A stretch of 64,000 nt of DNA from an uncultured virus (IMG/VR IMGVR_UViG_3300042276_000826) (lineage: Duplodnaviria > Heunggongvirae > Uroviricota > Caudoviricetes), in IMG/VR virus record IMGVR_UViG_3300042276_000826; one strand, written 5' to 3'. Every line of letters begins with the position of its first letter. The stretch's first letter is position 1. A model generated the notes under the pieces. That model was given only the letters and a program-made list of their open reading frames with translations. It ran no database searches and was not told the origin of the DNA. Shown in pieces: positions 1-61,197 of the stretch. A program made the translations under genes and the position numbers.

Positions 1-3000
1 ATTTGCTTGAGCAATTGTTGCACCTATGGTTGCAGCACCTACAACTTTTCCTACAAATGGCATTTTTCTTAGAGTATTAAGAAACCCATTTGTCCTAACA
101 TTTGGATTATCTGGCATCGCCCCTGCTGCTTTTAATTCTGTTTCAGTTGCAAAATTATTAATTTTTGGTTGAGGATTAGGTTTTTTAGGATTTTCTATGT
201 TATCATTAGGCATATCTTTTGAGGAGGATGTCATGTCATCAGCAATTATTGGAGCATTTGTTTTATTTGTACTTGGGTTGGTTGTATCGGCACTTTGGGG
301 TTTTTTTGGTCCAGATGGTTCACGTCCAGATAGAACATAATCAATTCTACTTTTAGCACCTTTGTTATTTTCCATATATTCTTCCACATCGGTAGGGTTT
401 TTTGGATTAAATTTTTTCATCTTTCCATCATCACCTTTGCCTCTAGCATGCCCTGTAAGTTTATCTTTCATTTCATTGAATTTTTTATTAGCCCTACTAA
501 AAGCACCTCTAACTTTACCACCACTAACAACATCAGCAGCAGCTAAAAATCCTGCACCTGCAATTATTCCTTTAACTACTTCTCCTACCGTACCGCTCCC
601 AATAGTATCAATAATTGGGTCATAATTAAATTGTTCGCCTTTATTTTTAACATTTACATCTTCATTCGTTTCTGTTCTGTTTCCTGTAGTTAGACTATTT
701 AATGCTTTTGCCTCAACTGTTGCATCTTCCCCTAATGCACCTGTAAAACTCATTCCTCCTGCAATTAAAGCATTATGAGAATTCATGTTATTTGCATTCA
801 AAAAGGCTTTCGCTTTTGCAAAGTTTTTTGGCATTACTGATAGTGAACCATCTTTATTTTTCGCTAGTAATCCCGACTTCATTAAATCTTTTGTAACGGC
901 TGCACCTCTTTCATCACTCTCTTTGAAAGCTGCCGTAAGCATCTGCCCAACAAAACTTTCTACATATTGTGGATTGTCTTTCATTACATTTTGCATACCT
1001 GAAACATTACCCATTTTAGAATAAGCTTGTAATTCAGTTGCACCTGATACAGTTTTTGTTCCCTCTTTTGTTAAAGTACCTGTGTTGTCAATCATCCCTG
1101 CATCTTGACTACCTTTAAGAGTTGCAGCTGTTGTAGATATTTTTTCTCTTGCAATTTTTTGTTGGAGTTCGACATACCCACCTCCTTTTTGGTTTGCAAA
1201 ATCAATAGTTGCTATACTACTACTTGTTTTCCCCTCTGCTAGTTCTTTTGCAACTGATTTAATCGCATCCTCTATTTTTTTAACACCCATTTCTTTTGCT
1301 TTTTCTTTGTAAGCTTTTAAATCACCTTCTACTGAGCCTTCTTGCTGTGCAGCTTTGATAATACTGTCTTTATAATCTGTCTGAACTGCATTCTCAATAC
1401 CGCCTTGAGTTTTTATCTTCGCCATAGTCTTATGAATATTGCTCATTTCACCATATTTAGAAGCATCTCTATACACATCATTCCCAAATTCCTCACGGTT
1501 TCGTTTGATTGCGTGTCCTTTTCCAATTTCACTTTCAATGCCTGCGGAACTTACTCTTTGAATAGCACTCATATCATCTCTTGTTAGATTTAATCGTCCT
1601 GCTCCTAAAGTTTTGTTTGCACCAATTCTTCCCATGTTTTCTGAACCTTTTGCAAATTGATCCACTTCTGAATTTGAAACACCCCTAGAAACACCCATTG
1701 AGCTTAAATCTTTCCCTAAACCTTCTATTGCACGTCCTCGTCCAACATCGCTTGCGTTCCAATTTGTACTGTTTCTAAGAGATGAAGTATTGTTTGTCAT
1801 GTGACCTTGCACTTGCCCATCTTGATAACCAACATTGGCTGCACTGTTAAATGAAGCAGTTGCTCCATAGCCTGCTGTTTGATTAATCATATTGGCACTT
1901 TGCTTCATGTTACCACTTGCGTATGCCTCTGCTTTATCATAGCTTGCCATTGCCCCTGCTGCTTGTCCTAAACCTTTCATTCCGTTCATAACAGATTGAT
2001 AGTATTCTAAGGGCATTCGCCCTTTTGGAATATTGTCAATACCCATTTTAGATAATTTAGCCATTGCTTCTTCGTCATTTTGAATGCCTGCAACTGTTTT
2101 TTGACGTGCTGCTGAGTTTGCTGCTTTTTCTCTTGCTGTTGCAACATCATTTCCAATATATCTATTGGATAAACCTTGTATAGAAGATACGGCCATTGTT
2201 AAATCGCCTTTGAATACAATCGCAGGGATTAAGAAAATGGCACTTAGTCCTAACATACCCATAATCCCTTCCATAGTGGCAATATAATCTAAATAAGCAG
2301 GTATTTTGGTAATAGAGACTGCATTATCGCCAAACTCTGCCATTTTATCTACTGCCCCTATTGCAGCGTAAAACAAAACAAGGTTGTTTACAAGAGCCAT
2401 TGAAATTCTAATTGACTCAAATTGTATAAATCCCACAAAGTAGTTTTTAGCAATCGCAAAGCCTCCTCCAAAGCCTCGTGCAACTAAAAAGATTAAAGAT
2501 AAAATTGATGCAGCAACAATAGCTGAAAATAAAAAGTGCATAGCGTATGGCAATATCTCAACCGTCCATTTAAAACGCCCTAGCCCTTCACCTTGCAATT
2601 GTGCAGTTGAAGCTTTACCTGTAATGTTGTTTGCTATTTCAATTCCTGACATTCCCGAATTTCTATAGCTGTTGCTAACTGATGCTTCAACCAAAGGCGT
2701 TACTGCGTAATTTTGCATAAATATAGATAGTTGCTCAACCGAACCTCCTATAACATTGCTTGTCATATCTGCTAAAAGTATTCTTGAACTTGCATCAAGG
2801 TCTGATAAATTTGCTACTTTTGTTATCTCTTGTATTCTGTTTTTAACAGCAGGCTGAATAGCTAACAAATTTGGAGTGACACTGCTTGTATAAAAAGCTG
2901 AACATGATTGACTAAAAGGAACACCATCTTTATCTGTTGTTGATACAGATAAAGAAGCAGGCAAGCTTAAATTTGAAGGACTTAAAGCATCAAAAATATC

Positions 3001-3723
3001 GCCATCGGGTGATACCATTGCTTTTTTAACAAGAGGTGATATAGCCGATGCAGGAATAATACATTGCGTAATATAGTCTTTAAAGTATTTAGAAAAAAGC
3101 ATTGCAGCTTCTTTTGAAGCATCATCGTCACCTACATTTTCAATAGAGAATTGCTTAAGCAGCTTATTTGACATTTCAAAAATTGAACCAAAGCCCAAAG
3201 AAGCAAACCCCACTTTTCCAATGTCTTCCATTCCCGAATAGTTAATTGTGTTGCCTTGAAACGCTGCTTCAATCACATCTATAACATCCGAACTTACTGT
3301 TGTTGCGATTGAAGGGGCAAGAGCTGTAAGAAAAGGCACATTTGAAACCTTTTCATACCCTAAAGTTACTTCGGTATATTGAGGACTTAGCATCCCGTAG
3401 TCTAATCTTTTGTCTATAATATGTACATCTACTGGCACAAGCAAAATACTTACTGCCCCAACTGTAAAAACACCCGTTTTTGTTGCTGAACCAAAATCTG
3501 CTCTAAACAAAAGTGCAAAAGTTGTTACGACTGCTGCACTAAATACTCCTAGCCAAACCATTGTTTTGTAAATATCGTGTCCTGTAACCATAGCGATTGA
3601 ATTAAATACAGCAGCAATAGGCCTTACATCACCGTGTAAATAAATTGGAAATTCACTTATATATGTTGTTGCGAACAAACTTAATGGCGAAAAAATTAAC
3701 AGTAAAAGCAGTATTCTTTTCAT
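1..3723 (-). CDS. traG: TraG-like mating-pair stabilisation protein (TraG_N type), runs off the window start
   Basis: Not in the ORF track because it is open-ended. ATG at 3723 overlaps the upstream stop (ATGA). Reads MKRILLLLLIFSPLSLFA...IYLHGDVRPIAAVFNSIAMV...VHIIDKR...VSNVPF, then TM segments and a long Ala/Gly/Ser-rich tail. Both ends checked in the same frame; 1241 codons in the window; directly downstream of traLEK. Confidence 0.75.
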   Translation of the reverse strand, partial: MKRILLLLLIFSPLSLFATTYISEFPIYLHGDVRPIAAVFNSIAMVTGHDIYKTMVWLGVFSAAVVTTFALLFRADFGSATKTGVFTVGAVSILLVPVDVHIIDKRLDYGMLSPQYTEVTLGYEKVSNVPFLTALAPSIATTVSSDVIDVIEAAFQGNTINYSGMEDIGKVGFASLGFGSIFEMSNKLLKQFSIENVGDDDASKEAAMLFSKYFKDYITQCIIPASAISPLVKKAMVSPDGDIFDALSPSNLSLPASLSVSTTDKDGVPFSQSCSAFYTSSVTPNLLAIQPAVKNRIQEITKVANLSDLDASSRILLADMTSNVIGGSVEQLSIFMQNYAVTPLVEASVSNSYRNSGMSGIEIANNITGKASTAQLQGEGLGRFKWTVEILPYAMHFLFSAIVAASILSLIFLVARGFGGGFAIAKNYFVGFIQFESIRISMALVNNLVLFYAAIGAVDKMAEFGDNAVSITKIPAYLDYIATMEGIMGMLGLSAIFLIPAIVFKGDLTMAVSSIQGLSNRYIGNDVATAREKAANSAARQKTVAGIQNDEEAMAKLSKMGIDNIPKGRMPLEYYQSVMNGMKGLGQAAGAMASYDKAEAYASGNMKQSANMINQTAGYGATASFNSAANVGYQDGQVQGHMTNNTSSLRNSTNWNASDVGRGRAIEGLGKDLSSMGVSRGVSNSEVDQFAKGSENMGRIGANKTLGAGRLNLTRDDMSAIQRVSSAGIESEIGKGHAIKRNREEFGNDVYRDASKYGEMSNIHKTMAKIKTQGGIENAVQTDYKDSIIKAAQQEGSVEGDLKAYKEKAKEMGVKKIEDAIKSVAKELAEGKTSSSIATIDFANQKGGGYVELQQKIAREKISTTAATLKGSQDAGMIDNTGTLTKEGTKTVSGATELQAYSKMGNVSGMQNVMKDNPQYVESFVGQMLTAAFKESDERGAAVTKDLMKSGLLAKNKDGSLSVMPKNFAKAKAFLNANNMNSHNALIAGGMSFTGALGEDATVEAKALNSLTTGNRTETNEDVNVKNKGEQFNYDPIIDTIGSGTVGEVVKGIIAGAGFLAAADVVSGGKVRGAFSRANKKFNEMKDKLTGHARGKGDDGKMKKFNPKNPTDVEEYMENNKGAKSRIDYVLSGREPSGPKKPQSADTTNPSTNKTNAPIIADDMTSSSKDMPNDNIENPKKPNPQPKINNFATETELKAAGAMPDNPNVRTNGFLNTLRKMPFVGKVVGAATIGATIAQAN

Positions 3724-33602: not shown

Positions 33603-35027
33603 CTAAGCTATTGAAATAGCTATAGGCGGGGCTTCTTTATCTTGAATACGAGATACTTCGGCAATACTAGCAATACTAGATACCTCATGTAACTTAATTA
33701 ACGAAGATAAAGTATGACTGGTTCTGTTTGAAAGTAGAGAAACTTTAGCCTCTAAATCCAACCTTGCCTTTTCAGACAAGGGTTTTAAAATAGCTCTTGT
33801 AAAATATCTTGAAGCTATATTATATGAAGCTGATAGGTCGGCATGATACATTTTATTGTTTTTAAATTTAGCAATATCTTTTTTCTTGCTTCTCTTAACT
33901 AATCCACTTCCATCAAACGCATACATAGAAGTTCCTCTTGCTAATACCTTAGAATATCTAATACTTTTAGAATGAGCTTTTTTAAAGCTTAAGTCTTGAA
34001 TTTTAGATTTTGCCCAAAATTGAAGTTTTGCTCTTAATCTTCTTGCTCCAAAGAAATGTTTTGGTAATCTCATCTTACCTAGATACTCAAACACAACAAC
34101 ATCTGCATTATTCTTGATTGCAAATTCTATAATCTCATCTACTGTATTTTGAATAATAAATTTTTGAAGATTATTTATCTTTCTCCAAAGTTTTGGTTTT
34201 TCATTTAGTATTCCTGATTCTCTTTTAGCTTTAGCAAGTTTATTTATAGCTGTTTTTAAACGGTCTTTTTCTATAGATTGATTGATAAATTTTCTATCTA
34301 TGACAGTTCCATTATAATCTATACAACTACAAACTGCACTATTAGTTAAGCCTAAATCCACACCAATTACTCTTTGTTGTTTAAGTGATGTCGAGTTAAG
34401 TTTAATCTCTGTTTGATATGGGATATGTAAAAAGTATTTTTTGCCTTTTTGTACTAAAGATGGATTTAGCTCTTTATATCCACTAAATCTAAACATTTTA
34501 CCTGAAAGTAATTCATTTGCTTTATAATCTATCTCTACCCATACCCAATCATTATTTTTATATAGTTTTATTTTGCCTTTTCCATCACTAATCTTATTCC
34601 ACATATTATCTTTATAAAATACTGGAAAGCTTTTAGGCTCATAATTTAATGTTGGTGGTTTTTCATAAAACTTTTTATTGTTTTTTATTTTATTTTCTTT
34701 TTTCTCCTTATAAAGCTTTAATCTTGAAAAGTGAGAATCACATACTCCTATAGCTTCCATTATAGTTGAACGTCTAAGATAACTTGGATATTTATAGAAC
34801 TCTTCACTAAAATCATATTTTATATTAGTATTTTTCGACGTTCTATGAGTTATAGCCTCTATATAGTTTAGCTTTTCTTTTGAATTTCCAAGTTCCAATA
34901 ATTTACTATACTCTTTTTCGCAAACTCTTATATAGAAGCTCAAAGCCTTATTATAGATACTAAGTGTCTCTTTGAAAATATTAGTATGGCTAGTGATTTT
35001 TAGTTTAGCTGTTTTTGTAATTTTCAT
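33603..35027 (-). CDS. tnpB: TnpB RNA-guided nuclease family protein
   Basis: RuvC motifs GVDLG, VFEYL, HADLSASYNI; no CxxC zinc finger; likely start MKITKTAKLKI at 35027. Confidence 0.88.
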   Translation of the reverse strand: MKITKTAKLKITSHTNIFKETLSIYNKALSFYIRVCEKEYSKLLELGNSKEKLNYIEAITHRTSKNTNIKYDFSEEFYKYPSYLRRSTIMEAIGVCDSHFSRLKLYKEKKENKIKNNKKFYEKPPTLNYEPKSFPVFYKDNMWNKISDGKGKIKLYKNNDWVWVEIDYKANELLSGKMFRFSGYKELNPSLVQKGKKYFLHIPYQTEIKLNSTSLKQQRVIGVDLGLTNSAVCSCIDYNGTVIDRKFINQSIEKDRLKTAINKLAKAKRESGILNEKPKLWRKINNLQKFIIQNTVDEIIEFAIKNNADVVVFEYLGKMRLPKHFFGARRLRAKLQFWAKSKIQDLSFKKAHSKSIRYSKVLARGTSMYAFDGSGLVKRSKKKDIAKFKNNKMYHADLSASYNIASRYFTRAILKPLSEKARLDLEAKVSLLSNRTSHTLSSLIKLHEVSSIASIAEVSRIQDKEAPPIAISIA

Positions 35028-35248
35028 ATTAAGTCTTCCATATCCCAATCATCAAACTTTCCACTCCTCACTAACTCTATTCTCTCTTTTAAGGTTTTAC
35101 CTAATTCTAAATTAATTTCATCATTTATTTCTTTTTCAGTCATTCCATCTTTTAAGCCCCAAAACATCATTTGGGGAATTAGTGTGTTATTGATAAATCT
35201 TTTGATTCTATTATTTGATTTTGTGCTTATTGGTAACACTAAAGACAT
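35024..35248 (-). CDS. 74-aa ORF inside the IS, coupled to tnpB
   Basis: AGGAG RBS; TTGACA-17-TAAAAT promoter at 35277-35305; ATGA overlap with tnpB. Confidence 0.6.
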   Translation of the reverse strand: MSLVLPISTKSNNRIKRFINNTLIPQMMFWGLKDGMTEKEINDEINLELGKTLKERIELVRSGKFDDWDMEDLI

Positions 35249-35298
35249 CTTGACTCTCCTTTAAAATATAGGTACAATTTTACCTAATATAAATTTAG

Positions 35299-35721
35299 TT
35301 GTCAAGGACATTAATGCAATTTAAGAGAAATAGACACAGTGTTTATAATTTACAATTTCATTTAGTTGTAGTTACTAAATATAGACATAAGTGTATTAAC
35401 AAGGAAATGAATCAAAGATTAAAAGAGATAGCTTATGATATATTTGAAAATAGGTGGGGTTTGAAAGTTATAGAGATTGAAACAGAACAAGACCATTTGC
35501 ATATTGCTTTTGAGTCAAATCCTCAAACCCAACTTTCTAAGCTTATTAATAATTTTAAAACAGTATCAAGTAGACTAATTAGAAAAGAGTTTAAAAGCCA
35601 TGTGGACAAATACTATTGGAAACCATATTTTTGGAGTCCATCATATTGTCTTTTAACTGTTGGTCATTCTACTATTGAGAAAATACAAGCATACGTAAGA
35701 AATCAAGAAGTGCCTAGTTAA
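35299..35721 (+). CDS. tnpA: Y1 HUH transposase TnpA
   Basis: HSVYNLQFHLVVVTKYR, DHLH, FWSPSY, YVRNQ. Confidence 0.95.
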   Translation: MSRTLMQFKRNRHSVYNLQFHLVVVTKYRHKCINKEMNQRLKEIAYDIFENRWGLKVIEIETEQDHLHIAFESNPQTQLSKLINNFKTVSSRLIRKEFKSHVDKYYWKPYFWSPSYCLLTVGHSTIEKIQAYVRNQEVPS

Positions 35722-38193: not shown

Positions 38194-38992
38194 TACTTAC
38201 AATGCCTTTGCTGTTTTCAATAATAACTTTAAAAACGGCATTTTCCTGAATCTCTTTGTCAATCTCTTGTGTATTGTTTTCACCATCAAAAACAAAATCG
38301 TTTATCTCTGTAAAAATATGTTTTTTTGTAATAGGCTTAGAATTAAAGCTTTTAAAAATTACTTGCTGAGGTTCTGTATCTTGAATATCAACTTTTGAAA
38401 CGGCCATCAGTTCATTGTGTTTATTATAAAGCGAAATTAAGTGTCGCCCTTTTTCATGAGTAATAAAACCATTAAAAACAGTTGCATTTTCCCAAAGACG
38501 ATAATAATTACTTGCAAAGCCGTCTTCTTCTGCCAAATACCAAGTCGGGTATTTGCTTACATCATTGTTTTCTGGAATAATTGAAGGAAAAAGTGTATGC
38601 TCATTAATAAAGAGTCGTGTGCTTTTGTAGTGTGTTCTGTATGTAAGTTTTTTTGTAGGGTTTACATCTTCTCTTTCATTGGCCGTACTGATACAAGTAA
38701 TGCCGTCTTTTTCAATTTCAATATCTTTTTTAAGCTTTACATAACCTGGAATATGTACCGAAGAGACAATGTGCGACCCAAAACGAAAACGCTTGCTCAT
38801 GTTGTGCATTTGATAGCACACAATGCTTTTAAAATCATCACTGTTGTAATATCTCTTAAAAACAATTATGTCATCGTCAAGTTCACCATTCATTTTTAAA
38901 TTAAAATATTTTTTTGCCTTTGCAAAAAGTGGGGTTAAAAATAAAAACGAACCCGTAGCAGCTATAGCTTTTATAAAATTACGTCTTCCCAT
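38129..38992 (-). CDS. Tat-exported hypothetical protein
   Basis: N-terminal MGRRNFIKAIAA twin-arginine signal. Confidence 0.65.
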   Translation of the reverse strand: MGRRNFIKAIAATGSFLFLTPLFAKAKKYFNLKMNGELDDDIIVFKRYYNSDDFKSIVCYQMHNMSKRFRFGSHIVSSVHIPGYVKLKKDIEIEKDGITCISTANEREDVNPTKKLTYRTHYKSTRLFINEHTLFPSIIPENNDVSKYPTWYLAEEDGFASNYYRLWENATVFNGFITHEKGRHLISLYNKHNELMAVSKVDIQDTEPQQVIFKSFNSKPITKKHIFTEINDFVFDGENNTQEIDKEIQENAVFKVIIENSKGIVSIDLPYGCPYINTYFMQGVEIE

Positions 38993-39791
38993 TAAATTTC
39001 CTTGTTTTAGTATTTTTAGTATCGTTAATGTAAATTATTTCAAAATCATCAAGCTCCGCAAGTTCTTCTTTAAAGAAATCTTGTATTTTTTTAGAAAAAT
39101 ACATTTTTACAAACAAAGTGACACGCTTTCTTTTTAAATCAATAATACACTTGTTGTAACCATAGCTTTTTCCAAGCTCTTTGAGTTTATTAAAAATTGA
39201 GTTGATTTTATGCCTAACCACTTGCTCATGTACACGTATGGCTTTTACTTCAAAACGTCCATTTTTTTGCTTAATTTTTTCTCTTTTTGGGATATAAAAT
39301 AAAAATCCCTCGCTGTCATATTTAAATAGCTCTTCTTTGAATTCATTTGAAAAAAAGTTATTAGGCTTAATCTCAACTTGTGCAAAGAAGTTATTTATTT
39401 TTTTATTATTTTTGTTATAAAACTCAAACTCTACTTTATTGTCTTTTGTAATCTTCACGGGGTGTCCAAAGAGAATGTTTTTATTAGCTTTTAAGATTCC
39501 TAAAAAAAATGTTTTAATTTTATTAAGTGAGAATTGCATCAGTTGCTCATTCAATAATCTCTTAAAAAGCTTGTGTTTCTCATTGGACATAATATAATAC
39601 TCTGTTTTGTAATATCCTTGCTTGTCACTTAAACCTATAAAATATCCTGTTTGAGACAAAGAGACATCAAGAAAGCCATACGTTTTAGAAACAGCTTTTT
39701 TAATAATTTCCCTCACCTCGAAATCTTCAAGATTATAGTGTTTGCAAAGCTCTTCAATTTCATTGTTTATATTATCTTTTCCAAGCAACAT
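38979..39791 (-). CDS. hypothetical protein, weakly NusA-N-like
   Basis: 270 aa; IEELCKHYNLEDFEVREIIKKAV resembles the NusA N-terminus. Confidence 0.5.
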   Translation of the reverse strand: MLLGKDNINNEIEELCKHYNLEDFEVREIIKKAVSKTYGFLDVSLSQTGYFIGLSDKQGYYKTEYYIMSNEKHKLFKRLLNEQLMQFSLNKIKTFFLGILKANKNILFGHPVKITKDNKVEFEFYNKNNKKINNFFAQVEIKPNNFFSNEFKEELFKYDSEGFLFYIPKREKIKQKNGRFEVKAIRVHEQVVRHKINSIFNKLKELGKSYGYNKCIIDLKRKRVTLFVKMYFSKKIQDFFKEELAELDDFEIIYINDTKNTKTRKFNGKT

Positions 39792-40219
39792 TATTCACCA
39801 ATCAAAGTTTATTAAATTATAGTAACTTATTAATAAAAGATAAATTAATTTTATTAAATCATTAAAATTTTATTATTTTGAAGCCCACCAGTAAACGAAA
39901 TTGCTTGAAATTTTGGTTATATAAAGAAGAGATATGGTGGGCTATATAGAATTATAACAAAGAAAATCCAAAAAAACTTAATTTTTTAATAAAATTTAAT
40001 TAATTAATAAAAAAACTTTTTTATTTATAGATTTTTAAGTTTCCATAGATTAAAATTATGAATATTTTTTTTAATTTTATTGTATTTTACAATAATGAAC
40101 GCATTTTTCTTCTTCTTGCTTTATAGAAGTTAAACAGCGTGTCCTAATAAGGACAAAGCGATAATCAATAGGCACTCTTGCAAGAGAGTAATATCGCTAG
40201 GTGTAAAACCTAAAATAGC

Positions 40220-41445
40220 CTTGAAACGGTGAAATTTGCCGTTTTCAAATTCCTTAAATTGACGGGGAGTACCTAAAGTTTTTTGGTACTAAGCATGTAT
40301 AGTGATATATATGTGGCGATGGGTAATTCCATTGATTGTATAAAAATTTGTGACCATAGCACAAATAAAGATGCAATCTTAATCGGTACAGTAACAAGCC
40401 AAAAAAATAGATAAGAGCAGCAGCTCTTTGATAAATGGGCAATCCGCAGCCAAGACACTTAAAGAGTGTAAGGTTCAGAGACTAGGAATAGCTTACGCAC
40501 ATCTATAAAAGCGTAAGTCAAGTAGGCAATAAGCAACTTCTTAATCGACTCCAATTTTCTTTTTTATTTTACAAATAAAGAATGACAATATAGGAGATCA
40601 AAATGTCAAACAATCAAACACTAAGAATAGATATACAAGCAATTCAAAAACTAAAGTTTTTTGAAACACTGGATAAAACAACACAAAACAGTTTAACTTT
40701 TATGTTAAGAAACCCAAGCCACACAAGAGTAATTTACATGGAAGACCCAGAGGGTATTTCAGATAGATTGTTTTCAAGTGTTGCTAGAATTGATGCAACT
40801 AAAGGGTTTTTAAACAATGCACTCAATGGTATTATTAAGCCAACAGATCCACAAAAGTTTTTTACAAAATATCCCGAATACGGTATTGCATTTCAAGAGT
40901 TAATTGATGCAATTAAAAAAGTTGAAAACATGGGATATGACTTAGCAAGTACACTGCCTGTTTCATCATTAAGAAACAAAGCAATTAAAAGAGAAATCAC
41001 AAAAAGAAAGCCAAAACAAGAGGCTGCACCAAAAGCAAAGGCTGAGGTGAAAACACCAAAAGAAAAAGAAACGCCAAAAAGTGATAAAAAGGTTGAAACA
41101 GCACCAAAAGCTGAAACAAAAGATGCAAAAGTTGAAGCAGCACCAAAAGCTACTGCAACACCAAAAGCATCAGAAGTTAAGAAAACCGAAACAGCAGCAA
41201 CAAAAGCTTCAACAACAGCATCAGAAGTTAAAACAGAAGTAAAAGCTGCAACCTCAACTGAAAAGAAATAAAAAGTTTGATTAAGAAGTAATGATTGTCG
41301 AAAAAGGGAACATAGAAGATATAGTCCGTCCGTGTATGACTTAAGATAAGTTTGGTTTAGCTTTGTCATGCACCCTGCTTTAGAAATAAAGCTTGTCATA
41401 CGAAAGGTATGAGCAGTTGCCTGTATTACACGGGTAAACGGGTAG
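40220..41445 (+). ncRNA. group I intron-like ribozyme (IC1-like P4-P6 with P5abc) with internal ORF; boundaries approximate
   Basis: P AAATTGACGGGGA 40256-40268; Q AATCCGCAGCCAAG 40441-40454; R GTTCAGAGACTA 40473-40484; S AAGATATAGTCC 41316-41327; A-rich bulge GGTACAGTAACAAG 40385-40398; P9 hairpins downstream of S. Confidence 0.85.
40603..41271 (+). CDS. ribozyme-embedded protein with Ala/Lys/Thr/Glu/Pro-rich (histone-like) tail
   Basis: 222 aa, strong RBS; no LAGLIDADG/GIY-YIG/HNH motif; lies between the R and S elements. Confidence 0.8.
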   Translation: MSNNQTLRIDIQAIQKLKFFETLDKTTQNSLTFMLRNPSHTRVIYMEDPEGISDRLFSSVARIDATKGFLNNALNGIIKPTDPQKFFTKYPEYGIAFQELIDAIKKVENMGYDLASTLPVSSLRNKAIKREITKRKPKQEAAPKAKAEVKTPKEKETPKSDKKVETAPKAETKDAKVEAAPKATATPKASEVKKTETAATKASTTASEVKTEVKAATSTEKK

Positions 41446-41808
41446 TGTATTGCGAACACTATTGAACACAAGAGTTATTTAATAAACCATAAAAAATATA
41501 CCGTACTAGACGGTGACAAGTGAATAATGATAAAAGAGTACCGTAAGGGAAAAACATTACAATCAAGTTATCTAGTAGCCAAAGAGGCTCTATTTTTTAC
41601 AAAGCCTCTTGAGGCTACTTCTGTCTAGTGCAGAGTTTTTGTAAAGAATACACCTCTAATGGCGTTCATCCGAATCTCACAAAATAAATTTAACAGAGAT
41701 AGTAAATTAGTTGGTAACAGCTATGATGATGCGTACACCTAACAGTGCAAACTGACGTTTTCTTTTTAATTAAAGAATAAATAGGAAACCCGTTGGAGGC
41801 GGAAAAAA

Positions 41809-42003
41809 ATGGAAAATATTAAAAATGAAAGACTTGAGAGAATCAAGTCGCATTTGAGCAAATTTGTTTGCTCAAAAATCTTAGCTAAGGCTAAGATACA
41901 AAAAATAAAGGGAAGCAAACAAACGCTTCCACACTACTTGATAGAGTGGTGGGATGACGAGGAAGGCTATCAAAGCCTTTCTATCCCCCTTAAGTGGAGA
42001 TAA
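41809..42003 (+). CDS. small hypothetical protein
   Basis: 64 aa, GGAGG RBS, followed by hairpin aagagga/tcctctt plus T-run. Confidence 0.5.
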   Translation: MENIKNERLERIKSHLSKFVCSKILAKAKIQKIKGSKQTLPHYLIEWWDDEEGYQSLSIPLKWR

Positions 42004-42253
42004 GAAGAAGAGGATTAATTTCCTCTTTTATAACTGTTCAAAGCCAATATTTGCTTTATGATACTTATTGGCTTTGCCAATATTCCTATCATTTCCTTAT
42101 ATGGTTTTGAAGAGTTATATACTCTTTTTAGACTTCATGATTAATTTCATGAATTTGTGGGTACTTAAACAGTAATGTTTGCTGTCACACAAAGTCGAAT
42201 TGCAAAATGAGTTATATGGCAATTCATTATATGAAATCATAGAGGAGAGAACT

Positions 42254-42796
42254 ATGTATAGTAAAACGATAATGGTAGGAAATTTAACCAGAGATATAGA
42301 ACTAAGATATTTGCCAAGTGGTGCAGCGATTGCTAAAAGTGCGATTGCAGCTTCTTATAAATATAAGACACAAACAGGTGAACAAAAAGAGGAAGTCTGT
42401 TTTTTAGACTTTAATATCTTTGGACGAAGTGCTGAGGTTGCTAACCAATATTTAAAAAAGGGTTCTAAAGTCTTATTAGAAGGGCGACTTGTGTTAGAGC
42501 AATGGACAGCTCAAGATGGAACAAACAGAAGTAAACACTCACTAAGAGTAGATACTATGAAGATGCTAGATAGCAAATCAGATGCACAACAAAATAGTGG
42601 AAATTCGTATGAGAACCACAATGCGTATGCACAACAAAGTGATGCTTCACCTTCATATAATCAAAACCCTGTTCAACATCAAGCAGCTGCTTCAAGTGCC
42701 TATGCAAACTCCAATGTTGGTGGTGCGAGTAATCAAAGAAAAGAGGATTATTCAATACCTGAAATTGATATTGATGAAGACGAAATACCATTCTAA
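42254..42796 (+). CDS. ssb: single-stranded DNA-binding protein
   Basis: MVGNLTRDIELRY...YLKKGSKVLLEGRL; acidic tail DEDEIPF; start at 42254 with RBS. Confidence 0.97.
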   Translation: MYSKTIMVGNLTRDIELRYLPSGAAIAKSAIAASYKYKTQTGEQKEEVCFLDFNIFGRSAEVANQYLKKGSKVLLEGRLVLEQWTAQDGTNRSKHSLRVDTMKMLDSKSDAQQNSGNSYENHNAYAQQSDASPSYNQNPVQHQAAASSAYANSNVGGASNQRKEDYSIPEIDIDEDEIPF

Positions 42797-57551: not shown

Positions 57552-60500
57552 ATGAATGATTTAAACACAACAAATTTTACAGTTTCTTCGGTAGTAAGTT
57601 ATCCAAATAGAGATAATCGTTTCGGTAACAACAGTTATAGAGGAAACTGTACAGGCTTATTGATTAAAGATATGATTAATTTCTTTAAGCCAAAACTTTT
57701 TGTAGATGCTTGTGAGGGAAGCGGTACATCAAGAGATGTATGTAAAGCCTTGGGCATCAATTATGTAGGTTTAGACTTACGCTATGGCAATGACTTCACA
57801 AAGATGTCAATTGCAAAAGAGTTGCCACACTTAGCCGATTTGTGTTTTACACATCCTCCGTACCACGATATGATTAAATACAGTGGTCAACAGTGGAATA
57901 AAGGACAAGGTTTGGTTGAAGGTGACACATCACACTGCAAAAGTGTTGATGAATTTTTAGCGATGTCACAAGTAATGTTGTTAAATCAAAGAGAAGCCAC
58001 ACGAAATGGTGGAGTTTATGCTACTTGTGCGACTTGTTGAATAGTGAAAAGCTATTCTGCCAATAAGGTCATTAAATATATTGGCAAACTAATTTTTCGA
58101 TAAGTGGAATGATGGAGTAACGCCCTGAAACGCTTACACTGATACTACGGATAGCAAATTGTATCGCTAAATACGAAATGTTATAAGCCCGTTGAAGTCG
58201 GCTAAGAGCTACCCTAACACAAGAATTATCTTGATGAGGCAATGCGAACCAGAGGTGGTCGAGTAGTGATAGGTCGGGTGTCTATAAAATATCTATGATG
58301 AGAATGTGCATAAGCACTGACGAATTTCCGAATGTAAGGGTCTAAACATAAAATATACAGAAATGTATATACTACAAACTGTAGGGCATAAGTGGTAAAG
58401 TAAAAATGGGTTGTATGAAATACCATATAGTGTTAAAGGCACTATCAATATGCAGGCTCAAAGGAAACATCTAAGGATATATGCAAAGATAGAAAGATTG
58501 GAACAAGGAAAATTAGAGATATGGAGACTTAAGCGGTCTATGAAATATTAAGATATATAAATTCGCAAGATACTAAAATCTTTTAACTCTAATGAAAGCG
58601 AAGCCACTACCGTTATATTATACTGACTATATAATATTGAAAGAAATCTGTAATGGATTTGTTAGGAAAGGGCTTTAGTCAAAGTTTATTAAACAAATAA
58701 AACTAAATACAAATCAAAAGTTCGAGTAAGATTAAGAGAGAATTTCCTATAAGGAGTTCGATTTTGAATAATCAAAAGAATCTGAAAAGACAGAAATTAA
58801 GAAATAATGAATACTACCAAATGCAAGATATTCAAGATAGATTATATATGCAAAGTTCAAAAGGTACAAAATTCACTCATTTAATGGAAATCATTACAAG
58901 TGAAAACAATATCTTACTAGCATATAGAAATATTAAGAAAAACAGCGGTAGTAACACAAAAGGTGTAGATGGTAAAGACATTAGTCATTTGGCTAGTCTT
59001 GAACCTGAAACACTAATAAAATTAGTTCAAATCAAATTAAAAAACTACTTCCCTAACAAGGTGCGAAGAGTAGAAATACCAAAACCTGATGGGAAATTAA
59101 GACCATTGGGGATACCGACAATTATGGATAGACTAATACAACAGTGTATATTACAAGTATTAGAACCTATTTGTGAAGCTAAGTTTTACAAACATAGCTA
59201 TGGTTTTCGCCCTTTAAGAAGTACAAAACACGCAATTAGTAGGGCTAATTTCCTAGCCCAAAAGAACAATCTACATTATGTTGTAGATGTTGATATAAAA
59301 GGCTTCTTTGATAATATAAATCACGGAAAACTTATTAAACAACTGTGGACTTTGGGAATAAGAGATAAAGCATTAATTACAGTAATTTCAAAAATGTTAA
59401 AAGCAGAAATCGAAAATGTGGAAATACCCGATAAAGGTACACCACAAGGTGGAATATTATCTCCGCTCTTAGCTAATGTTGTTCTAAATGAATTCGACTG
59501 GTGGATTAACTCTCAATGGGAAAGTATTCCAACCAAAAAACAATACGCTAGTTATTCAAAAGACCCAAATGGGAAAAAATATCGAGCACTAAAAACAACA
59601 AATCTAAAAGAAGTATATATCGTAAGATACGCAGACGATTTTAAACTCTTTTGCAGAAATCACCAAGATGCAGTTAAACTCTTTGAAGCCTCTAAACAGT
59701 GGTTAAGAAATAGATTACATCTTGAAGTAAGCAAAGAAAAATCAAAAATTGTAAACTTACGAAAAAACTACTCTTACTTTCTAGGTATAAAATTTAAAGT
59801 ACACAAAAAAGGTAAGAAGAAAGATAAAAACACTAAGTGGGTGGTAAAATCCCACATTCAAGAAAAAGCTTTGAACAAAATGAAAGAAAATATTAGAAAA
59901 CATATCAAAAATATACAAAAATCAAAGGTAAATTTAAATCTATCAATAGATTTATATAACTCCTTTGTAATAGGAATACACAACTATTATAGTTGTGCTA
60001 CGAATTGTAATTTAGATATGGCAAAACTTTCTAATCAAACACGAACTAAAATCTTTGTAAGACTAAAAAGCAGAAGAATAAATAAATCAGATAAATTACC
60101 TGACTACATTAAAAAAGTATATGGTAGAAGTGAAATGTTAAGAATGTTAGGTGAAAAAGCAATTTTGCCACTTTCATATATTCAACACTCAAAGCTAATG
60201 AACTTTAGCCAAACCAATATCTATAATCCAATAGATAGAGAGAAAATTTACAACTCTCAAAAAGTTGCGGATAACAAGATAATCAGATATTTAATTGAAA
60301 ATCCTATTCAAGGACAATCAACTGAATATAATGACAATCGTATATCTCTATATATAGGACAATTAGGTAAATGTGCAGTAACTAAAGAAGAATTAGAAAT
60401 TGGAAATATGGAATGTCATCACATTCATCCAAGAAGCAAAGGTGGGCTAGATAGTTACAAAAATTTAGTATTAATTACTAAAGAAGTACATAAACTAATA

Positions 60501-61197
60501 CACTCAACACAATTGGAAACAATTAGCAAATATCTGAAATATATACCTACTGATAAAATTACCCTTGAAAAGCTAAATAAATTTAGAACTAAAGCTGGTA
60601 ATCTTGAAATTTGTCTATAAAGATTTAATTGATTAAGTATTTAAGTATAAAGTTAAATAAACTTTGATGGAACGCCGTGTGCGGTGAAAGTCGCACGCAC
60701 GGTGTGAAGCGGGGGAAAAGTTGGAGATAACATCAAATTCTTACCTATCGCTATTGATTGGCGACCAAAAAGTTGCAGGTGTGTGCAGCTCATATCAAGC
60801 GGATTTTATTAAAATGATGCCTAAAAATGAGCTTTTGAATGTTGTAATTAAAATGCAATATAACACACACAGTGCAAACATTCAATACTCAAATAGAAAT
60901 TTTATTCCTATTAGCCATGAGTATTTGATTCTTTGGAAAAAGAAAGCAGCTTCTATTTATCAAGTGGCTTTCAGTATTGCCAAAGAAGGACAAAAACAGA
61001 TTGCTAATACATGGCGAGCTGTTATAAGAATTGTGATGATGCAGTTTAATGGTTCAGTTTCATTAAATACAATTTATGATGAGGTTGAAAAAGTTGCATC
61101 TCACTTGATTGCAAAAAATGCAAACTACAAAGCAAAAATCAGACAAGTCTTGCAAAAACACCATACAAGTGTTGCAAGAGGCGTTTGGGCTGCGTAA
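57552..61197 (+). CDS. amino-DNA methyltransferase with C-terminal winged helix, split by a group II intron (exons 57552-58026 and 60755-61197; 305 aa spliced)
   Basis: DACEGSGT and THPPY in exon 1; junction restores GVYAT-L-IGDQK in frame; HEYL in exon 2. Confidence 0.88.
58027..60754 (+). mobile_element. group II intron
   Basis: 5' GTGCG at 58027; domain V GAACGCCGTGTGCGGTGAAAGTCGCACGCACGGTG ~60670-60705; domain VI ending CCTATCGCTAT at 60754. Confidence 0.95.
58764..60620 (+). CDS. ltrA: group II intron RT/maturase/HNH endonuclease
   Basis: RPLGIPTIMDR, GTPQGGILSPLL, RYADDF, C-terminal CHHIHP...GG...YKNL..HKLIH. Confidence 0.95.
   Translation: MNNQKNLKRQKLRNNEYYQMQDIQDRLYMQSSKGTKFTHLMEIITSENNILLAYRNIKKNSGSNTKGVDGKDISHLASLEPETLIKLVQIKLKNYFPNKVRRVEIPKPDGKLRPLGIPTIMDRLIQQCILQVLEPICEAKFYKHSYGFRPLRSTKHAISRANFLAQKNNLHYVVDVDIKGFFDNINHGKLIKQLWTLGIRDKALITVISKMLKAEIENVEIPDKGTPQGGILSPLLANVVLNEFDWWINSQWESIPTKKQYASYSKDPNGKKYRALKTTNLKEVYIVRYADDFKLFCRNHQDAVKLFEASKQWLRNRLHLEVSKEKSKIVNLRKNYSYFLGIKFKVHKKGKKKDKNTKWVVKSHIQEKALNKMKENIRKHIKNIQKSKVNLNLSIDLYNSFVIGIHNYYSCATNCNLDMAKLSNQTRTKIFVRLKSRRINKSDKLPDYIKKVYGRSEMLRMLGEKAILPLSYIQHSKLMNFSQTNIYNPIDREKIYNSQKVADNKIIRYLIENPIQGQSTEYNDNRISLYIGQLGKCAVTKEELEIGNMECHHIHPRSKGGLDSYKNLVLITKEVHKLIHSTQLETISKYLKYIPTDKITLEKLNKFRTKAGNLEICL

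Follow-up and report, generated by a model that had tools for sequence, protein, structure and literature searches.

The 64,000-nucleotide (nt) stretch of DNA analysed here (IMG/VR record IMGVR_UViG_3300042276_000826; "the window") contains an element on the plus strand, from about 40100 to about 41470, that is probably a phage-type group I ribozyme of IA2-like layout, placed in the non-coding leader of a plasmid operon and carrying an open reading frame (ORF) in a P7.2-like arm. It lies in a gap (39792-42178) between a minus strand gene block, whose last gene is 38979-39791, and a plus strand operon that starts with ssb (42179). Splice sites, activity, a coupling of translation to folding and the function of the encoded protein are features that we infer.

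Searching Rfam at gathering thresholds returned for the window only a group II intron (58084-60754). When an E-value threshold was applied instead, the group I model RF00028 matched 40257-40486 (+) in part, with 25.7 bits (E 6.2e-4) over model positions 57-150 of 253; the match spans J3/4, P4, P5, P6, J6/7 and the P7 5' strand. Beyond these positions the model is broken because of an 820-nt insertion and a missing P8. The strings AAUUGACGGGG, AAUCCGCAGCCAAG and AAGGUUCAGAGACUA align to the RF00028 consensus with high posterior, and with AAGAUAUAGUCC at 41316-27 the P7 helix forms between GACU 40480-83 and AGUC 41323-26.

A pattern derived from P4/P5 retrieved 78 IMG/VR loci and 14 genome loci, and the comparison set comprised 107 loci. 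L036 and L079 are phage DNA-polymerase introns from IMG/VR. They share AATTCCTTAAATTGACGGG with the window and read on as P7-AAC-AGGGAAC-P8-(A)TGATATAGTCC. RF00028 matches L036 over its full length with 93.7 bits, and the window is alike to L036 in the P3-J3/4-P4 string and in the R and S elements, with 20-nt identities. The weak Rfam score is offset because the core is near-identical to that of L036 and L079, which argues that the window RNA is a group I ribozyme and a homologue of true group I introns. The following elements make up the core.

40250-55 (+): P3 5' strand UUCCUU; AATTCCTTAAATTGACGGG is identical in L036 and L079
40257-40486 (+): J3/4, P4, extended P5, P6, J6/7 and P7 5' strand; RF00028 partial match, 91% identical to the related contig L015 in P3-P5
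40472-84 (+): R element (GGTTCAGAGACTA)
41305-10 (+): P3 3' strand (P3') AGGGAA, assigned by homology to L036 and L079; no listed difference in the close relative X15
41311-15 (+): CAUAG, the P8 site without P8 in the window allele
41316-27 (+): S element, J8/7 AAGAUAU plus P7 3' strand AGUCC; matches the consensus and the S of all relatives

The 5' half of the ribozyme folds with z = -4.78. The same 5' half is present on L015, a 2379-nt metagenome contig (RF00028 partial match, 23.3 bits), upstream of an ORF whose product is 46.5% identical to that of the window over 115 aa. RNAalifold predicted 93 pairs for the window and L015 together, ten of which are changed on both sides with pairing kept; examples lie in hairpin 40141-54, helix 40158-63/40192-97, a P5 hairpin, P6 and a hairpin downstream of P7 termed H1. 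Identity between window and L015 is 83% in the ribozyme 5' half and 91% in P3-P5, compared with 64% in the ORF DNA, 72% in the upstream intergenic region and 71% in the upstream gene. A chance resemblance with no ribozyme behind it would fit an Rfam score under the gathering cut-off, but R, S, J3/4, P4 and P6 all match, 20-nt identities link the window to the 93.7-bit intron and covariation is found in both L015 and X15; we regard this explanation as barely conceivable.

A blastn search with the whole element gave no plasmid match and a single 49-nt phage match. The best BLAST likeness to the window P3-P5 was found in the phage introns L101, L093, L060, L048 and L106 (79-82% over 72 nt), in which a P2 hairpin is present together with a P6-loop ORF that begins like a LAGLIDADG protein (start only). 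Because these best matches have P2, the window core combines features of P2-bearing and P2-less relatives.

The ORF interrupts the core between R and S, where a sequence-only reading of this DNA had placed a 222-aa frame; all coordinates given there for the ORF and the named strings were correct. The same reading had paired UUCCUU with AGGGAA, leaving the ORF arm and a hairpin in a P7.1/P7.2-like position, and homology to L036 and L079 agrees: the P3 pseudoknot UUCCUU 40250-55/AGGGAA 41305-10 can be formed in the window, and the same pairing occurs in both introns with an identical 5' strand. The segment between P7 and P3' contains the following elements.

40485-89 (+): GGAAU, directly after P7; 5' strand of the P7.1 arm in relatives and alternative P3 partner
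40491-40518 (+): hairpin H1, P7.1-like (8 bp, 12-nt loop), GCTTACGC 40491-98 with GCGTAAGT 40511-18
40519-24 (+): linker CAAGUA between H1 and the clamp arm
40525-48 (+): clamp 5' strand (6 bp, internal loop, 13 bp; P7.2-like), closes the ORF arm
40549-40601 (+): arm interior 5' of the ORF, with the Shine-Dalgarno motif AGGAGATCAA at 40592-40601
40603-41271 (+): ORF of 222 aa; all-helical N-domain (about 1-132) and basic tail rich in K/A/T/E/P (133-222)
41277-99 (+): clamp 3' strand

As described in passages of PMC3428280, a mark of IA2 introns is that P7.1 and P7.2 are linked by G-U-A, and phage DNA-polymerase introns of this kind lack P2. In the window, H1 (40491-40518), CAAGUA (40519-24) and the arm (40525-41299) lie in this order between P7 and P3' (41305-10), with the linker containing GUA. 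Since P3' is AGGGAA, as indicated by the L036/L079 homology, the P8 of X15, the GGAAT of the clade and the GUA linker, H1 and the ORF arm fall in the P7.1/P7.2 position; the data thus support a placement of the 820-nt segment 40485-41304 in the P7.1/P7.2 position of IA2-type introns.

An alternative topology would take GGAAU 40485-89 as P3' and H1 as P8, with the ORF arm inserted between P8 and J8/7, and might rescue an allele that lacks P8. AUUCCU/AGGAAU gives 6 bp with -6.2 kcal/mol against -5.8 kcal/mol for UUCCUU/AGGGAA, the complementarity persists in L015 (as GGGAU, by way of a G.U pair), and H1 begins one base after GGAAU, like P8 in non-IA introns. However, L036 and L079, whose P3 5' strand is identical, use AGGGAA; in X15 a proper hairpin separates AGGGAA from J8/7; and GGAAU follows R in relatives that mostly could not use it for P3: R+GGAAT is found exactly in 14 IMG/VR introns, most of which have a P3 5' strand without complementarity to GGAAT. 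In five of the relatives (L001, L003, L006, L008, L010) the partner of GGAAT is a downstream ATTCC, which is followed by CA(C/A)GAGTR and P3'. We also know of no precedent for a large arm plus a 22-nt spacer before J8/7. This topology is distinctly unlikely, and we retain the IA2-like assignment.

One related intron was seen on L078, the IMG/VR contig of L008, where it interrupts a GC-rich Hsp70 gene (2300-3400, minus strand). An AT-rich ORF precedes its core, and its P7.1 arm is closed by GGAAU/AUUCC and shows a CCUAAAG/UAUGG receptor-like motif.

The long-range pairing that had been proposed to clamp the ORF was confirmed. The outer helix joins GGCAAT 40525-30 to ATTGTC 41294-99, and the inner helix joins ACTTCTTAATCGA 40536-48 to TTGATTAAGAAGT 41277-89, beginning 5 nt past the stop codon. 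The duplex energy (40520-40602 versus 41272-41315) is -21.5 kcal/mol, compared with -12.9 +/- 2.75 for dinucleotide shuffles, of which 5/1000 reach -21.5, and the clamp is present in the minimum free energy (MFE) structure of the whole 1385-nt RNA. Its 3' strand, which lies beyond the end of the L015 contig, was compared in X15: there C41299T leaves a G.U pair with G40525, and the loop base 41292 is missing. In L015 the H1 stem is retained; one of its pairs differs in a compensatory way (G-C to A-U), and one further change affects a single side. The H1 loop of L015 carries an insertion of about 130 nt (L015 1815-1945), with the stem retained.

The topology had also been called unusual. This did not hold, the layout being that of IA2 introns, and relatives of the window ribozyme carry endonuclease ORFs in the same arm. 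Among the 14 R+GGAAT loci, ten (including two duplicate pairs) contain an ORF that is 232-286 aa long and starts 19-64 nt after R, and the distance from R to S is 720-852 nt in the relatives and 834 nt in the window. Five of the ten ORFs were tested; four proved to be LAGLIDADG_2 and one HNH. An ORF in the P7.1/P7.2 arm is, on this comparison, normal for the clade; the family of the window ORF is not. What is unusual is the non-nuclease, helical family with an H1-like tail, the non-coding plasmid leader and the loss of P8.

The P8 loss became apparent by comparison with X15, an approximately 95% relative from another sample, found in one of four runs that were chosen for intermediate word shares. 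Forty of its 52 differences to the window are listed: five in the P5-extension hairpin, 26 in the ORF and nine from the 3' clamp strand to just downstream (41299-41544). Between 41310 and 41316, X15 is longer than the window by 13 bases (G, AATGT, TT, CGTT and C after 41310, 41311, 41312, 41314 and 41315, respectively), which together with CATAG of the window form a 7-bp hairpin with a 4-nt loop between AGGGAA and J8/7, as read by hand from the indel table. At the equivalent place a 9-bp P8 is present in both L036 and L079. The hairpins at this site in X15 and in the two introns indicate that the window allele has lost P8, evidently by a 13-nt deletion. The earlier statement that there is almost no P8 is thus correct for the window allele and wrong as a design feature. 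The P3-P8 stack is generally important to the group I core, and splicing of the window allele is probably impaired by the loss; such impairment would be tolerable, as there is no interrupted frame to restore. Downstream of S, X15 shows a compensatory pair (G41377C with C41392G) in a GAAA-loop hairpin, and C41431T keeps a G.U pair.

These data also bear on the possibility that the element is a decaying relic, that is, an inactive ribozyme with the ORF as the first gene of the operon and RNA pieces that persist by hitch-hiking or through a role as mRNA leader or stabiliser. Compared with X15, L036 and L079, 13 nt of P8 are deleted, as would be expected of a relic, and the same holds for the non-coding context with no frame to restore and the use of the operon's own ribosome-binding motif by the ORF; the P8-less allele is nonetheless widespread (at least 80% of the sampled words in 12 of the 24 listed runs). 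On the other hand, the ribozyme 5' half is 83-91% identical between window and L015 while the flanking genes reach 64-71%, the changes in L015 and X15 respect the helices, and the remaining core strands are intact and match the consensus. We consider decay a possible but unlikely explanation.

The ORF 40603-41271 is the sole sizeable plus strand ORF of the gap. Among its 26 listed differences in X15, 18 fall at codon position 3, six at position 1 and two at position 2; because they concentrate at position 3, we regard the ORF as real and as a translated gene. The absence of a homing-endonuclease motif that had been read from its sequence agrees with the profile searches: Pfam and PHROGs gave no family match to the 222-aa protein, hhalign against six LAGLIDADG ORFs of related introns gave probabilities of at most 0.1%, and neither LAGLIDADG, HNH, GIY-YIG, His-Cys, PD-(D/E)XK nor EDxHD families matched. 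With residues 1-139 as query, an exhaustive HMMER search yielded 16 representatives of clusters formed at 50% identity, including the query, at E<=0.001 (seven at <=1e-10, three at <=1e-30), and none of these 16 members matched a nuclease family at E<=0.1. The members share a domain of about 130 aa with invariant S53, D64 and F86, followed by a variable basic tail.

With the alignment of the 16 sequences AlphaFold gave a mean predicted local distance difference test score (pLDDT) of 70.4 (block means 69-95 over residues 11-140 and 85-95 over 51-130), compared with 40.5 without alignment. The model, of moderate confidence, consists of helices throughout, the long ones spanning 52-74 and 83-115. 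As to a degenerate homing endonuclease, which had been named as an outcome that would overturn the earlier view, Foldseek with this moderate-confidence model returned nothing in PDB or BFVD at E<=0.001, and the best VIA-align Z was 6.1, to generic helical hairpins. A profile search of PDB gave no hit below E 2, ESM Atlas no usable match to the 222-aa protein, and PADLOC three single weak rows (best E 0.003).

The tail had been described as about 90 residues rich in A/K/T/E/P, and residues 133-222 indeed consist to 83% of these amino acids (pI 9.8). Tails of other members match H1-like models (Pfam HC2 in 2/16, best E 7.4e-5; NCBIfam Rv3852_fam in 4/16, best E 2.9e-5), these matches being of low complexity; the window protein itself matches neither Pfam HC2 nor the NCBIfam Hc2/Rv3852 models. 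Most plausibly the protein binds nucleic acid and is a factor of the plasmid's early programme.

Further homologues with DNA context were mostly not recovered. A word search with the single protein recovered only the query itself among 2609 candidates, and a profile word search recovered 4/8000 candidates. None was found in 179 stretches of genome contigs or in three sets of IMG/VR stretches (0/15, 0/374, 0/591), and one was found in 352 stretches of metagenome contigs, namely L015. tblastn searches of plasmids and phages with the N-domain and with family member P0005 gave no hit, and the family profile run over the six-frame ORFs of the 107 loci found L015 only. Three genome searches (0/3; 0/401 in one class, sampled; 0/1) ran without a positive control and are uninformative.

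Could the protein serve the ribozyme as a cofactor, in the manner of a maturase-like chaperone, with its basic tail aiding folding of the interrupted core? ORF and ribozyme are co-conserved in L015 and X15, but synteny explains this, L015 also having homologues of two upstream minus strand genes. A basic disordered tail and the H1-like matches in other members would suit such a role; the tails, however, vary greatly in length and composition across the family, and the matches are low-complexity. We hold a cofactor role to be very unlikely; the earlier suggestions of an RNP partner or of cargo on a stable or circular RNA are conjectures. The suggested check whether homologues sit inside a group I core came out positive for the two relatives with DNA context, L015 and X15, but not as independent evidence, because both are syntenic with the window plasmid.

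Outside the core the following elements were assigned.

40096-40220 (+): structured 5' leader with hairpins 40112-29, 40141-54, 40158-97 (inner 40175-86) and 40199-40211
40223-46 (+): candidate P1, GAAACGGU with GCCGUUU(UC); a U40230.G40238 wobble closes a 7-nt loop
41332-41463 (+): P9-region hairpins 41332-73, 41377-92 (GAAA loop), 41393-41416 (GAAAG loop), 41417-37 and 41442-63, from the local MFE structure

Conservation with L015 starts at 40096, just after TACAAT, and amounts to 86% over 40096-40220. Compensatory changes affect two pairs in hairpin 40141-54 and two in helix 40158-63/40192-97. Among the 107 loci the leader has a BLAST match in L015 only, and it matches no Rfam family at E<=10, including c-di-GMP-II and other riboswitch models. 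The promoter scan called no promoter of the sigma-70 type just upstream of 40096; TACAAT 40088-93, read by eye, is an unproven candidate promoter element. In the internal loop of the leader, AGGC 40170-73 can pair with GCCU 40218-21 before the candidate P1 and so form a pseudoknot. L015 has AGAC/GUCU at these positions, one apparent compensatory change that depends on gap placement; RNAalifold instead pairs GCCU with GGGC 40437-40, which covaries too.

The candidate P1 lies 2-4 nt upstream of P3, like the P1 and internal guide sequence (IGS) of the P2-less introns L003, L004 and L036. The L003 exon ...ACGGAT pairs with GTCCGT and the L004 exon CGACTAT with GTAGTCG; L036 is similar. A 5' splice site after U40230 has, in our estimate, an even chance of being correct. 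If it is, the 130-nt structured leader would be the 5' exon; overall, 40096-40220 may be either 5' exon or 5' peripheral domain. The 3' splice site probably lies between 41445 and about 41475, with G41445, G41464, G41472 and G41474 as candidate omega-G positions. GCUUUAU 40118-24/AUAAAGC 41386-92 was considered as P10 and rejected: the latter strand is part of a local hairpin whose closing pair covaries in X15, with 40118 unchanged. No plus strand ORF of at least 40 aa was found in 39792-40282 or 41272-41808.

Several observations weigh against an IA2-like ribozyme in this place. The RF00028 score of 25.7 is half of the gathering cut-off of 50 and refers to a part of the model only, the two candidate P3 pairings GGAAU (-6.2 kcal/mol) and AGGGAA (-5.8 kcal/mol) are equal in energy, and between P3' and J8/7 the window has only CAUAG and no P8. 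The candidate P1 is identical in L015 and hence shows no covariation; the first hairpin, CUUCU/AGAAG 40112-29, was rejected as P1, having no U.G pair. When P10 partners of the two candidate IGS were sought by hand, pairings adjacent to a G did not exceed 3 bp, and none was convincing. The window contains no tRNA gene, and no further Rfam family matches at the element; no gene is interrupted, which is atypical for group I introns. No intron-less allele was found, and none of the contigs in the four runs links the two flanks of the element directly; a joint of 39982 to 41047 (side 24, low likeness) was dismissed, as it arises from unrelated contigs. The window stretch was found in DNA runs from wastewater, sludge and bioreactors, and none of the listed runs is RNA. 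The DNA-context relatives that have the ORF are L015 (distant) and X15 (close), both syntenic plasmids.

For the relation between ORF and ribozyme we propose the following. The 19-bp clamp would join P7 and P3' so that the core can fold around the gene, and the Shine-Dalgarno motif would be masked by a CUCC/GGAG helix stacked on the clamp; in local folds CUCC 40549-52 is predicted to pair with GGAG 40593-96 with probabilities of 0.98-1.00, and an analogous pyrimidine tract in L015 reaches 0.78-0.98. Because the clamp 3' strand starts 5 nt after the stop codon, ribosomes terminating on the ORF would melt the clamp, and translation and ribozyme folding would be mutually exclusive. Masking of the start site and competition of translation with ribozyme folding occur in phage introns that encode endonucleases. 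The 5' exon would be the 130-nt leader and the 3' exon the RNA leading to ssb.

A more far-reaching and quite speculative idea is that the ribozyme has been domesticated as an RNA gate on the first transcript made after conjugative entry. Such a gate might, with as little probability in our view, use the conserved, perhaps pseudoknotted 130-nt leader as an unrecognised sensor, a core that switches its P3 partner (GGAAU/AGGGAA) and the embedded H1-like protein as a coat for DNA or RNA. It is equally doubtful that splicing or 5' cleavage would then choose between the protein, made from an excised, clamp-stabilised intron, and the downstream ssb, recT and anti-restriction genes.

By its translation signal the ORF looks plasmid-native. 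As had been noticed from the sequence, it uses the same initiation motif, AGGAGATCAA, as ten downstream genes: exact copies occur 11 times in the window, all on the plus strand, once at the ORF and ten times downstream, and an ATG follows each of the 11 copies after 1-4 nt. With up to one mismatch there are 16 matches, compared with 5.03 +/- 2.34 expected (0/100 shuffles reach 16). This exact 10-nt ribosome-binding motif extends across 40592-63939 (+) and is much more uniform than ordinary Shine-Dalgarno sequences; the homologous gene of L015 has AGGAGAAGAA.

The plus strand operon has the order ssb, recT, recE-like gene, primase, ardC, radC, and looks like a leading region by its content of anti-restriction, ssb and recombination genes. 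Domains detected in the window are TraK_C, TraL, ArdC-N (ArdcN), RadC, SSB, RecT, RecE-like exonuclease, primase and DNA methylases, and by this gene make-up (TraK_C, TraL, ArdC-N, RadC, SSB, RecT) the replicon is identified as a conjugative plasmid. The ssb region has five plasmid matches at the DNA level (66-78% identity). Because all five records are from Campylobacterota, the host probably belongs to this phylum.

The closest known systems are IA2 phage introns in DNA-polymerase genes (T7-like PhiI, W31 and Pf-WMP3, as far as described in passages of PMC3428280; L036 and L079) and in a capsid gene (L002-L013). The window shares with them the P3 5' strand, J3/4, P4, R and S, P7.1/P7.2 with a GUA linker, P9 hairpins with GAAA loops, the probable lack of P2, and an ORF after P7 with about 720-850 nt between R and S. 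It differs in that its ORF is not LAGLIDADG, HNH or GIY-YIG, no coding exon is interrupted, 130 nt of structured RNA lie upstream, the ORF arm is closed by another helix (GGAAU/AUUCC in the relatives), P8 is missing, and the replicon is a plasmid and not a phage.

A c-di-GMP-responsive allosteric group I ribozyme is located in a 5' UTR of Clostridioides difficile (passages of PMC3984707). In common with the window it has a non-coding leader and a structured RNA domain upstream, and its output, as presented in these passages, is RNA processing and not frame repair. Unlike there, no riboswitch model matches the window leader, the C. difficile ribozyme has no ORF, and regulation in the window is hypothetical. 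IStrons, group I introns fused to an IS200/IS605 element (excerpts of PMC4227781), are likewise bacterial group I ribozymes with a cargo other than a homing endonuclease; their cargo, according to these excerpts, is a transposase for mobility, whereas the window ORF has no transposase or nuclease signal. The window element was rejected as an IStron: the IS200/IS605 pair 33603-35721 is separate and lies 5 kb away. A further non-nuclease gene of the host replicon in a group I intron is rps3 in the fungal mitochondrial rnl gene; that case is organellar, concerns an rRNA gene and involves a protein of known function.

To our knowledge nearly all known bacterial group I introns lie in tRNA genes, rRNA genes or protein genes of phages and prophages, and what they encode is a homing endonuclease or, in IStrons, a transposase. 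Searches of the literature outside subscription journals found neither a group I ribozyme described from the leading region of a plasmid nor one that carries this protein family. The window ribozyme departs from known cases in location, a plasmid non-coding leader under purifying selection, and in its ORF, an uncharacterised family in the endonuclease slot, and it adjoins the genes that are needed first when a conjugative plasmid reaches a new host. An active RNA would make it, after that of C. difficile, the second natural group I ribozyme that acts on a leader rather than mending a gene; if inactive, it would exemplify intron decay once no reading frame depends on splicing. The alleles with and without P8 are a natural experiment on the tolerance of the core to P8 loss.

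The 715 nt between ribozyme and ssb (41466-42180) form a chain of near-perfect 7-10-bp hairpins, with an MFE of -216.4 kcal/mol compared with -143.8 +/- 6.6 for 20 shuffles (z = -10.97). Seven terminator-like sites were found in 39700-42300 (1.2 expected), six of them on the minus strand and five of those within 41500-42030. A 64-aa ORF (41809-42003) without Pfam match overlaps the hairpins, and the region has no BLAST match among the 107 loci. It could be an oriT, DNA hairpins of the single-strand initiation or promoter type, or 3' exon RNA.

Two further mobile elements were observed. The group II intron 58084-60754 (RF02004 154.8 bits, RF00029 60.5 bits) has an RT-HNH ORF at 58764-60620 and appears to split a DNA methylase gene (pieces 57552-58040 and 60721-61197). 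The IS200/IS605-type pair 33603-35721 consists of a TnpB-like ORF (RuvC, OrfB_IS605; 33603-35048, minus strand) and a Y1 transposase (35299-35721, plus strand).

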